A stretch of DNA of 64,000 bases from Candidatus Helarchaeota archaeon (GTDB taxonomy: Archaea > Asgardarchaeota > Lokiarchaeia > Helarchaeales > RDOG01): the NCBI GenBank assembly GCA_019058315.1, contig JAHPZH010000001.1:817208-881207 (forward strand), given 5' to 3'. A model generated the notes under the pieces. That model had not been told where the DNA came from. It was given only the letters and a program-made list of their open reading frames with translations, and made no database searches. A program made the translations under genes and the position numbers. How positions within the stretch are numbered: position 1 is the stretch's first letter; the number at the start of each line of letters is the position of its first letter. Positions 22,750 through 24,717 of the stretch are shown one piece after another.

Positions 22750-24717
22750 CTACTCCCTGAAATACTTTCTTTTTACGATAACTTCTCCTATATTGTCTCG
22801 AATATTCTTTTGATATCGCTGTTCAATTTCATTAATTCGTTTACGGGAATAAAATTCAGAACCACCATATTCACCAACATTAACAAACAATATTTTTAAT
22901 TCAGGATAGTGCTTTTTATTAAAAATTCGAACAACTTTATAATTAAATGGCAAGACTTTGCTTGTTAGAGATGGAACAACTATGAAATCAACTTTATTTT
23001 CTTCAGCCCATTTTGAAATTACTTCATATAAACGAAGAAAATCTTTACAAATAAAAATCGCAATCCTACCAAATGTAGTTTGAAAAATATTGATTTTAGG
23101 TTTTCTCTCACATTTTATACTCTCAATGATGTTGGGGTATATCAAAACAGGTGTTTGTTTTTTCTGAATATTATGTGCGAAATTATCAATTATAATTGCC
23201 TGATTTAAATACTCATCAAATTTATGTGATTTGTGCATTTTTGATAAGTCATCCCAAGAAAAACGATATCGGGGACTTTTTATGTGTTCCATCCCTCCTA
23301 TGAATAAAATATTAAAATCAGTATTTATCTCTTTAAATTGCTTAATAGTATTAATCAGGCCTTTAAGGTAATTGTTTGGGATTGAATTTTCTGGAAAAAT
23401 TATGAGTTTATTTTTCCCAGGATCCCTTAAAATTAGTTCCATTATTTCATTAGTTTTCTTAAATATACCCAAGTCGGTTACATCATACTGAAGAACATTT
23501 GATTCTATTGCATCAGGTCTCCAAACTTGTTTCACGAAATAAAAAAAATGATCTTTTATAGATTCATCTGGTTTAAAGTTATATTTCATAGAAAGCGAGT
23601 GAATTTGTACCATGTAAATTTGGACTTCTCTAATATTTTTATTAAATTTATTTAATGGAATTTCATTAGGTTCATAAGCTAAAAACCACGCATTCTGTTT
23701 ATCCCTTAAAATATCATTTTCTCTCCAAGTTCCCAAATCAAGGATTTCCTCTTCTGATACACTCTCAATATATTCTTTATATTCTTTTATTCTTTTTGCA
23801 TTTAATTCAACTTTACTAATAGGTTGTTGTTCTCTCTTCTTGCAATAATCAAGGACTTTTGGAATTGAAGTTTTTAATAAGTGAATCTCTTCAAAAGACA
23901 AAGGATTGTATTCAAGGCGTAATACCCTAAGCCTAGTAAGATTTGTTAATCCTTTAATTTCAGTTATTCTATTATTACTAAGATTTAGATGTTCAAGCTG
24001 AGTTAAAGCCTCCAAATTCCTAATTTCGGTGATTTGATTGCTTGCAAGATTTAAAAATTTAAGTTTATTTAATTTATCTAGCTTTTTGATTTCTGATATT
24101 TTGTTCCCACTGAGAAAAAGAGCCCTAAGATCTTTTAAACTGTCTAACTTTTCAATATTTGAAATTAAATTAGAAGAGAGATCTAAAGTTTGAAGATTTA
24201 TAAGAGAATCCAGATTTTTGATTTCTTTTATTTTATTAAACATTAAATTCAAAGTTTTTAGTGAAGTTAAGGCGTCTAAGTTTTCTAATTCTGGAATCTT
24301 ATTTTTTATACATTCTAGAAAAGATAATTTAGTGAGATGATCAATATTTTCAATTTTTGAAATTTGATTATTACCTAAAAACAAAGATTTCAGATTAGTT
24401 GAAGTCTCAAGTTCTTCAATTTTTGTTATTTGGTTATTATTAAATATTAGCGTTTTAAGTTGTGTTAGATTTTCCAAATTTTCAATTTTTTTTATTTGAT
24501 TACCTGCAAGTCTTAAATCTAGGAGATTAGTTAAGGTTTCTAAATTCTTAATCTCGGAAATTTTATTGTATGAAAGATCTAATACTTGAAGGTGAGTCTG
24601 CTGTTCTAATTTCTTAATCTCTGAAATATCTCTTATTCCAACCGCATTTAATTGAAGATATTTAATTCCATTAACATCCTCAATTTTATAAGATTTTCCC
24701 CTAAATTCCACGGACAT
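22750..24717 (-). CDS. LRR (SDS22-like) - carbon-nitrogen hydrolase (nitrilase) fusion protein
   Basis: About 11 22-aa repeats LxxLxLxxNxIxxIxNL; C-terminal LIIFPENSIP (E), IQKKQTP (K), FGRIAIFICKDF (C), DFIVVPS, NVGEYGGS. Confidence 0.85.
   Translation of the reverse strand: MSVEFRGKSYKIEDVNGIKYLQLNAVGIRDISEIKKLEQQTHLQVLDLSYNKISEIKNLETLTNLLDLRLAGNQIKKIENLENLTQLKTLIFNNNQITKIEELETSTNLKSLFLGNNQISKIENIDHLTKLSFLECIKNKIPELENLDALTSLKTLNLMFNKIKEIKNLDSLINLQTLDLSSNLISNIEKLDSLKDLRALFLSGNKISEIKKLDKLNKLKFLNLASNQITEIRNLEALTQLEHLNLSNNRITEIKGLTNLTRLRVLRLEYNPLSFEEIHLLKTSIPKVLDYCKKREQQPISKVELNAKRIKEYKEYIESVSEEEILDLGTWRENDILRDKQNAWFLAYEPNEIPLNKFNKNIREVQIYMVQIHSLSMKYNFKPDESIKDHFFYFVKQVWRPDAIESNVLQYDVTDLGIFKKTNEIMELILRDPGKNKLIIFPENSIPNNYLKGLINTIKQFKEINTDFNILFIGGMEHIKSPRYRFSWDDLSKMHKSHKFDEYLNQAIIIDNFAHNIQKKQTPVLIYPNIIESIKCERKPKINIFQTTFGRIAIFICKDFLRLYEVISKWAEENKVDFIVVPSLTSKVLPFNYKVVRIFNKKHYPELKILFVNVGEYGGSEFYSRKRINEIEQRYQKNIRDNIGEVIVKRKYFRE

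Follow-up and report, generated by a model that had tools for sequence, protein, structure and literature searches.

The gene at positions 22750–24717 of a 64,000-nucleotide window (the whole stretch of DNA analyzed here) from a Candidatus Helarchaeota archaeon, a member of the Asgard archaea, encodes a protein of 655 residues, LRR-nitrilase, in which a solenoid of leucine-rich repeats (LRRs) is fused to a C-terminal domain of the nitrilase, or carbon–nitrogen (CN) hydrolase, superfamily. We regard LRR-nitrilase as a credible candidate for an immune gene that unites sensor and effector in one protein, and on balance we favor the reading that it is a stand-alone immune gene of Asgard archaea, with the LRRs as the sensor and the nitrilase domain as the effector. 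The evidence, wholly computational, defines a conserved and well-delimited candidate family.

The C-terminal domain is matched by the Pfam model CN_hydrolase (PF00795) at residues 417–559, with scores on either side of the gathering cut-off of 23.2 bits (22.3 bits when the whole protein is scanned, 23.9 bits when only the domain is). Folded alone with AlphaFold2, the C-terminal 371 residues give a model with a predicted local distance difference test score (pLDDT) of 89.3 and the four-layer alpha-beta-beta-alpha sandwich of the nitrilase superfamily. In VIA-align, residues 76–371 of this model superpose on aliphatic amidase (2uxy) and Nit2 (4hg3) with a Z score of 18.4 and a root-mean-square deviation of 2.7 Å over 221 aligned residues; more than 200 PDB chains, including formamidase, beta-ureidopropionase, and Lnt, reach Z ≥ 8, and Foldseek returns a probability of 1.0 for Nit2/Nit3, beta-ureidopropionase, vanin-1, and Lnt. 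A first profile search of the PDB was swamped by LRR columns; with the nitrilase-only alignment, vanin-1/pantetheinase (E = 8.5e-4) was the sole match, and the defense reverse transcriptase (DRT) DRT1 did not come up. The Cys and the second Glu of LRR-nitrilase align with the active-site segment of vanin-1.

Catalytic residues were compared in an alignment of 32 domain sequences, 24–55% identical to the domain studied here and including ATPase-fused members. Seventeen columns are invariant, among them E443, K520, E532, and C557 (spacing K-12-E-25-C), and the motifs GGxEH, INQA, W570, PS, and GEYGGS are invariant as well; in LRR-nitrilase, FPE occupies residues 441–443, QKK 518–520, ICKDF 555–559, and GEYGGS 615–620. 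Judged by this alignment, E443, K520, E532, and C557 are the predicted Glu-Lys-Glu-Cys tetrad of the nitrilase superfamily, and, since both the tetrad and the family motifs are invariant, the domain is predicted to be an active enzyme, which it very probably is. An earlier note on this DNA had read a CN hydrolase domain with a complete E-K-C triad and an EYGGS end; the motifs are indeed present, and the three triad residues are the same in 32 of 32 sequences. Prediction of a nitrilase-domain homodimer gave a score of 0.01, which is evidence neither for nor against a dimer.

By profile, the nitrilases nearest to this family are those of defense systems. The PADLOC model RTasNitrilase matches 29 of the 32 members (best E = 6.4e-20; E = 3e-7 for the studied protein), followed by RT_UG5-nitrilase (25 members), Drt1a (10 members), and CARF_nitrilase (three members). 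Pfam CN_hydrolase matches 13 members at E ≤ 0.01 (best 5e-7), and the housekeeping nitrilase-family models of NCBIfam match none of the 32. Along the same lines, hhalign scores the family at 158 against an Asgard class of ~1275-residue and tetratricopeptide-repeat (TPR) nitrilases, at 108 against bacterial fusions of reverse transcriptase (RT) and nitrilase, and at 78 against the four housekeeping CN hydrolases of the same genome. The bacterial RT–nitrilase sequences were gathered via a 462-residue nitrilase of the same genome, a word-indexed search of longer proteins having retrieved none. The connection to defense RT nitrilases drawn in the earlier note thus gains support, and we place LRR-nitrilase nearest to defense-type nitrilases on the strength of these profiles, without assigning it to the UG radiation. 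Two maximum-likelihood trees were built, one quick and one careful. Both group the LRR-fused and solo nitrilases in a well-supported clade (SH-aLRT, the Shimodaira–Hasegawa-like approximate likelihood ratio test, 99; 95/97 in the careful run), with the solo forms nested inside, and the quick tree makes this clade sister to the ATPase-fused forms (97).

In the putative sensor, Pfam reports 10 stretches of LRR_4 (E = 2.6e-47), together with LRR_8, LRR_9, and LRR_14, over residues ~14–280. The motif L..L.L..N.I is present in 11 copies, starting at residues 43, 65, and so on to 263 with a spacing of exactly 22 residues, and is preceded by a degenerate repeat at 23–44; both the spacing and the column consensus agree with the SDS22-like 22-residue consensus LxxLxxLxLxxNxIxxIxxLxx. 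The best PDB sequence matches of this part are the LRR of a Roco protein (6hlu), internalin A, and PPP1R7/SDS22. A full-length AlphaFold2 model (pLDDT 90.7) shows 11 beta strands at the LRR period, then helices at 275–347, then the alpha/beta domain; Pfam, motif spacing, and modeled strands therefore bear out the count of about 11 SDS22-type LRRs given in the earlier note. Across the repeats, the scaffold positions L2, L4, N7, I9, I12, L15, L18, and L21 are conserved and positions 1, 3, 5, 6, and 8 vary; the variable positions, we infer, line the concave face. LRR-nitrilase is a cytoplasmic protein: it has no signal peptide, as had been claimed and as hydropathy confirms, and no membrane helix (maximum 19-residue Kyte–Doolittle mean of 1.1). 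A secreted, internalin-like adhesin was considered and rejected, there being neither signal peptide nor anchor and the NCBIfam internalin_A score being 123 bits against a cut-off of 1600. Pfam, PADLOC, and NCBIfam detected no P-loop or STAND NTPase (NACHT, NB-ARC) in LRR-nitrilase.

The family is small and patchily distributed in Asgard archaea. A word-indexed search yielded 84 clusters at 90% identity, and when 1.84 billion representatives (50% identity) were scanned exhaustively with HMMER, only 72 matched at E ≤ 1e-3. Named members are all Asgard, and named homologs all come from Promethearchaeota/Lokiarchaeota or marine sediment. Strong profile matches (E < 1e-90) occur in about six of 301 genomes of the phylum, including the one studied; the weaker matches (E ~1e-20) found in 99 of the 301 are other proteins, i.e., a ~1275-residue class, often in tandem, and ~900-residue fusions of HEAT repeats or TPRs to a nitrilase. 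Most members are LRR-nitrilases of 550–880 residues; their LRR motifs number between 2 and 18, while the length of the nitrilase domain stays constant. Variants include the nitrilase alone, LRR and nitrilase as adjacent genes (locus L005), and HNH-LRR-nitrilase. In the sister group, the nitrilase domain is C-terminal to an AAA_15/AAA_21 (ABC-type) ATPase, sometimes preceded by LRR, Ras/Roc-LRR, or DUF4365-LRR. The nitrilase module, in other words, recombines with sensor or switch modules, as an effector does; a domain-architecture search, which had been proposed as a check, found the same nitrilase with ATPase, Ras/Roc-LRR-ATPase, and HNH-LRR partners, and more distant Asgard versions behind HEAT repeats or TPRs. 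A scan of IMG/VR viral contigs retrieved no relative, and therefore nothing suggests a viral or anti-defense origin. A tblastn search with the nitrilase domain against 72,556 plasmids gave no match, and so no plasmid RT-nitrilase. Feature searches of the ESM Atlas led to nothing but bacterial clusters without a name and weak leads to TPRs. In the literature on Asgard, LRR, conflict-system, and CARF nitrilases, we found no paper describing an LRR-nitrilase fusion, which the earlier note had not known as characterized either, and none in which a nitrilase is the effector of an NLR-like or conflict system.

Some distant Asgard relatives are recorded here in their own right. In locus L026 (7900–10623, minus strand; G213:C1), a 907-residue protein consisting of a long HEAT-repeat array and a related nitrilase domain adjoins a UvrC-like gene, and P0132, of 896 residues, is a TPR-nitrilase. 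Locus L027 (G192:C1:152000–171999), from another Asgard genome, holds paralogous genes for ~1280-residue proteins arrayed head to tail, at least four in number and probably five (Table 1). This class is present in many genomes of the phylum, often in several copies each (e.g., three in G121:C33); the N-terminal ~1000 residues of these proteins gave only a weak MIT match and weak TPR-like leads.

Genomic context was surveyed at 14 loci of the LRR/solo clade with usable flanks, counting defense genes within 10 kb. The earlier note had made a lack of enrichment of homologs in defense islands part of what would refute its proposal; in a raw count, 10 of the 14 loci carry recognized defense genes, which does not refute it. 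The neighbors comprise an SMC operon and two Eco57I-type methyltransferase genes in the studied window; type I restriction–modification (R-M) genes in L004 and L009; TIR, a kinase-helicase and PLD pair like Mokosh, and nSTAND near the split LRR and nitrilase genes of L005; six TIR/ThsB genes and LD_cluster3 in L010; SLFN-NB-ARC-TPR and PNP-UQ_con in L011; SIR2-TPR and STAND-LRR in L012; a NACHT gene directly upstream of LRR-nitrilase in L031; a C5-methylase, HATPase_c_3, and then a BREX-1 operon in L050; and, as a weak case, SLFN_AlbA_2 only in L007. No partner gene is conserved across the 14 loci. Family genes, then, usually sit in defense islands, in changing company. In L050, the genes between 7587 and 21224 all run in one direction, with HATPase_c_3 (654 residues) followed by LRR-nitrilase and a BREX-1-like operon (BrxE-like, BrxA, BrxB, BrxC, PglX), and a C5 DNA methylase gene and an HhH-GPD glycosylase gene lie just upstream of HATPase_c_3. 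A 1273-residue neighbor of the family gene in L008 was examined as another SMC system and rejected (BLASTP E = 1.2 against the window SMC, no PADLOC match).

The studied genome (5.79 Mb in 12 contigs) contains three divergent nitrilase genes, all in defense-type islands, and four canonical CN hydrolases elsewhere. One of the three, which encodes an AAA_15/21 ATPase-nitrilase paralog of 806 residues, follows a Mokosh type I pair (MkoA, E = 1.9e-169; MkoB, E = 5.7e-21) at a distance of 23 bp. This locus (G000:C5:916962–924950, equivalent to L028:962–8950) encodes MkoA of 1147 residues, a MkoB-like protein of 699 residues, and then the ATPase-nitrilase, and the three genes may form a Mokosh variant. 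Another encodes the 462-residue solo nitrilase mentioned above (G000:C1:91–1479, minus strand, equivalent to L041:91–1479), which scores 96 bits against PADLOC RTasNitrilase and in the tree falls inside the clade of bacterial RT-nitrilase fusions (98/91); no RT is visible at its locus, which is at a contig end. Unlike the domain of LRR-nitrilase, this protein matches plasmid RT-nitrilases by tblastn. Its neighbors are a type IIG-like R-M gene, a gene for a 1230-residue NACHT-like ATPase, and two TIR_2 genes, which are the only ones in the genome and one of which encodes a TIR protein fused to a LeuA_dimer domain. The 5.8 Mb contain only eight N6_Mtase genes, yet two of the divergent nitrilase genes have one of these within 1 kb, with a chance of roughly 1% each.

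These data bear on two rival explanations. According to the first, LRR-nitrilase is an accessory component of the neighboring SMC/Wadjet-like operon or of the R-M genes and has no action of its own. Short distances speak for it: in the window, the SMC operon ends 163 bp away from the gene and the R-M pair is separated from it by 295 bp, and elsewhere the family gene lies 38 bp after the type I R-M gene YgjP (L009), 3 bp after HATPase_c_3 (L050), or directly downstream of NACHT (L031). Nevertheless, the neighbor changes at nearly every locus (R-M, BREX, TIR, STAND, SIR2, Mokosh), LRR-nitrilase is on the strand opposite to both of its neighbors in the window, and the large neighbor in L008 is unrelated to the window SMC. 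The second explanation makes LRR-nitrilase an ordinary metabolic amidase or nitrilase with an LRR scaffold, defense islands being merely dumping grounds for horizontally acquired genes. The domain does have the fold and catalytic residues of metabolic amidases, with aliphatic amidase, formamidase, and Nit2 as top structural matches, and the gene lies in an AT-rich island (15776–27857, GC content 0.237, versus 0.306 in the remaining window), which suggests horizontal acquisition of mixed cargo. However, the domain matches no metabolic nitrilase family of NCBIfam and reaches only vanin-1 in PDB sequence searches, the genome is already provided with its four canonical enzymes, and no metabolic or transport neighbors are conserved across loci. 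Because the neighbors change and no housekeeping family matches, both roles are less likely, and we consider each of them very improbable.

A third rival deserves more weight, though we think it unlikely. In this explanation, the LRR recruits a specific cellular protein for deamidation, as in Nta1, or for acyl transfer, as in Lnt, so that LRR-nitrilase would be a protein-directed amidase or acyl-transferase within the eukaryote-like signaling or protein turnover of Asgard archaea; it might act in conflict, but as a regulator and not as a suicide effector. The nitrilase superfamily has protein-modifying members, such as the N-terminal amidase Nta1, and the structural comparison retrieves Lnt. 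LRRs serve quite generally to bind proteins, the best sequence matches to those of LRR-nitrilase are SDS22/PPP1R7, which regulates a phosphatase, and the LRR of a Roco protein (6hlu), and one relative carries Ras/Roc-LRR. Moreover, the LRR is almost as conserved as the enzyme domain (mean identity to homologs of 40% and 44%, respectively), which would fit a constant partner, and it is because this gap is so modest that the explanation is kept alive. It is countered by the presence of the family in so few genomes of the phylum, which is not that of a core function, by the location of family loci in defense islands, by the fusion of the domain to AAA_15/21 ATPases typical of defense systems, and by the affinity of its profile hidden Markov model to DRT nitrilases and to no named housekeeping family.

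If LRR-nitrilase is the single-protein sensor and effector that we favor, the concave face of the LRR would bind a virus-derived or infection-induced protein, and binding would release inhibition of the nitrilase domain or promote its assembly, perhaps with activation by oligomerization, by analogy with other nitrilases including DRT1. The Cys557 thiol, aided by Glu443, Lys520, and Glu532, would then hydrolyze a C–N bond of some protein or small molecule that is essential to the cell, and the infected cell would stop growing or die (abortive infection). The label "amidase/deaminase" that the earlier note attached to this activity is only a guess.

Several points weigh against this reading. LRR-nitrilase has no NTPase switch, and the reading offers no account of how gating by an LRR alone would work; the inter-domain geometry of the AlphaFold2 model is uncertain (predicted template modeling score of 0.61). 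The nitrilase superfamily includes non-immune protein-modifying and metabolic enzymes. LRR identity is only slightly below nitrilase identity and thus gives no clear sign of diversifying selection. Defense context is guilt by association, 10 of 14 being a raw count without a background rate across genomes; four of the 14 loci have no recognizable defense neighbor, and the loci are partly non-independent (L004 and L009 share the same R-M). As for the phylogeny of the hydrolase domain, suggested earlier as a check, the LRR/solo clade is solid, but the deep nodes do not resolve a sister relation to RT-associated nitrilases, with the housekeeping split at 78/90. In the careful tree, one long bacterial housekeeping branch is misplaced among non-housekeeping sequences. 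No sister relation to DRT nitrilases is claimed, because of these deep nodes and the misplaced branch.

The features of the gene and its surroundings are listed in Table 1. The open reading frame (ORF) starts with ATG and its 655 codons are open throughout; the ATG is preceded, a few bases away, by a GGATGAG stretch, and an oligo-T tract follows the stop. The placement between an SMC operon and R-M genes given in the earlier note is correct. A second Eco57I/MmeI-type N6-adenine methyltransferase gene (33414–35783, minus strand, 789 residues) is 9 kb from the first (25560–27857), and the window thereby holds two of the eight N6_Mtase genes of the genome. Just right of the AT-rich island, in a stretch with a GC content of 0.35, are three tandem paralogs of 432 residues each (29322–33376, minus strand), family 4 glycoside hydrolases (Glyco_hydro_4 and 4C). 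At the left edge of the island (12808–15775) are genes for a WD40 beta-propeller protein (442 residues, plus strand) and a TPR protein (527 residues, minus strand), repeat types that serve as sensors in conflict systems.

Table 1. Coordinates of LRR-nitrilase, its parts, its window neighbors, and the L027 array (window positions unless L027 is named).
Feature	Position	Strand	Basis or remark
LRR-nitrilase coding sequence, 655 residues and stop	22750..24717	-	Monocistronic; final SMC-operon gene runs toward it (convergent), R-M pair runs away from it (divergent)
N-terminal cap, residues 1–22	24652..24717	-	Short beta hairpins, no signal peptide; AlphaFold2 model, hydropathy
LRR solenoid, residues 23–286	23860..24651	-	Degenerate repeat and 11 SDS22-like 22-residue repeats; Pfam, motif spacing, AlphaFold2
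Helical linker, residues 287–349	23671..23859	-	Family-specific; least conserved part, mean 24% identity to homologs
Nitrilase-superfamily (CN hydrolase) domain, residues 350–655	22753..23670	-	Pfam, Foldseek, structural alignment
Codon of Glu443 (FPE), predicted catalytic Glu	23389..23391	-	Invariant; 32-sequence alignment
Codon of Lys520 (QKKQTP), predicted catalytic Lys	23158..23160	-	Invariant; 32-sequence alignment
Codon of Glu532, predicted second Glu of the tetrad	23122..23124	-	Invariant; Lys+12, 25 before Cys; 32-sequence alignment
Codon of Cys557 (ICKDF), predicted nucleophile	23047..23049	-	Invariant; nitrilase-domain alignment
Four-gene SMC operon, Wadjet order	16221..22586	+	Neighbor; not a conserved partner of LRR-nitrilase
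200-residue ORF and 765-residue Eco57I/N6_Mtase/TaqI_C gene, type II/IIG R-M-like	25013..27857	+	Neighbor; 295 bp upstream of LRR-nitrilase, opposite strand
~1280-residue array ORFs in L027	2789-6628, 6853-10689, 10823-14674, 14761-18597, 18705-end		Each ends in a related nitrilase domain (E ~1e-20)

A defense-effector role of nitrilase domains has been shown only recently, in DRT1 and DRT11 (both 2026 papers). A family free of RT and built on LRR, ATPase, HEAT, or TPR modules points to the nitrilase as a portable effector and not an RT appendage. More tentatively, LRR-nitrilase and its ATPase-, HEAT-, and TPR-nitrilase relatives may possibly be an unrecognized family of Asgard innate immune receptors, in which a repeat sensor is wired without a STAND NTPase to a DRT1/UG5-type nitrilase effector. 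If so, LRR-based intracellular immunity would be present in the closest archaeal relatives of eukaryotes, and a simpler, RT-free handle would be at hand for finding the unknown substrate of defense nitrilases. The RT-free family provides a smaller protein for biochemistry. LRR-nitrilase also adds an NTPase-less LRR-plus-effector candidate to the Asgard immune repertoire, with implications for how LRR-based immunity was put together in eukaryotes.

Among known systems, the DRTs offer the closest parallel to the enzyme domain. The nitrilase domain of DRT1 is reported to be an abortive-infection effector that needs tetramer formation and has an unknown substrate, and that a C-terminal lid keeps inactive in filaments (PMC13275509); in DRT11/UG5, defense requires the RT and its fused nitrilase (PMC13436386). 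Like LRR-nitrilase, DRT1 (UG1) and UG5/DRT11 (class 3 UG/Abi RTs) have a C-terminal nitrilase domain with a complete tetrad, and by sequence the LRR-nitrilase family is matched best by the PADLOC models built on the DRT1 and UG5 nitrilases. In DRT1 and DRT11, the effector role of the domain is experimental; in LRR-nitrilase, it is putative. DRT1 and UG5 combine an N-terminal RT with alpha-repeats in bacterial hosts; LRR-nitrilase has an LRR solenoid and an archaeal host. No RT was found in LRR-nitrilase, in its window neighbors (by Pfam and PADLOC), or in any family member or locus examined, and LRR-nitrilase is therefore not a DRT.

NLR and STAND proteins (animal and plant NLRs, bacterial Avs, bNACHT) place a repeat sensor and a cell-killing effector on one polypeptide, as is proposed for LRR-nitrilase; the LRR is the recognition module in NLRs, and LRR-nitrilase genes are sometimes next to STAND genes. 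These proteins are built around a NACHT, NB-ARC, or STAND NTPase, whereas LRR-nitrilase has none, residues 287–349 being only a short helical linker, and is for that reason not an NLR. Where relatives of LRR-nitrilase carry an NTPase, it is an AAA_15/AAA_21 ATPase of the ABC type, unlike in NLR/STAND proteins, and in the NLR/STAND literature we found no nitrilase as effector. The same type of ATPase (AAA_15/AAA_21, ABC/OLD-type) is that of PtuA (Septu), GajA, and AriA, whose systems have nuclease effectors; it is shared with the sister-clade nitrilase fusions and is missing from the LRR-nitrilase studied here.

The LRRs of SDS22/PPP1R7, Roco proteins, and internalins are of the same 22-residue repeat class, but SDS22 is a phosphatase regulator, Roco proteins act in GTPase-kinase signaling, internalins are secreted adhesins, and none carries a nitrilase. 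LRR-nitrilase has no secretion signal and is therefore not an internalin; it also has neither the internalin inter-repeat domain nor a wall anchor. Housekeeping nitrilases, such as aliphatic amidase, formamidase AmiF, Nit2 omega-amidase, beta-ureidopropionase, and vanin-1, share its fold and Glu-Lys-Glu-Cys chemistry at 13–17% identity over the fold. LRR-nitrilase is set apart from them by its GGxEH, INQA, QxKQTP, CKDFLR, and GEYGGS motifs, an N-terminal helical extension, the LRR fusion, and an accessory-genome context. LRR-nitrilase would work most like a minimal sensor–effector immune protein that borrows a DRT-type effector.

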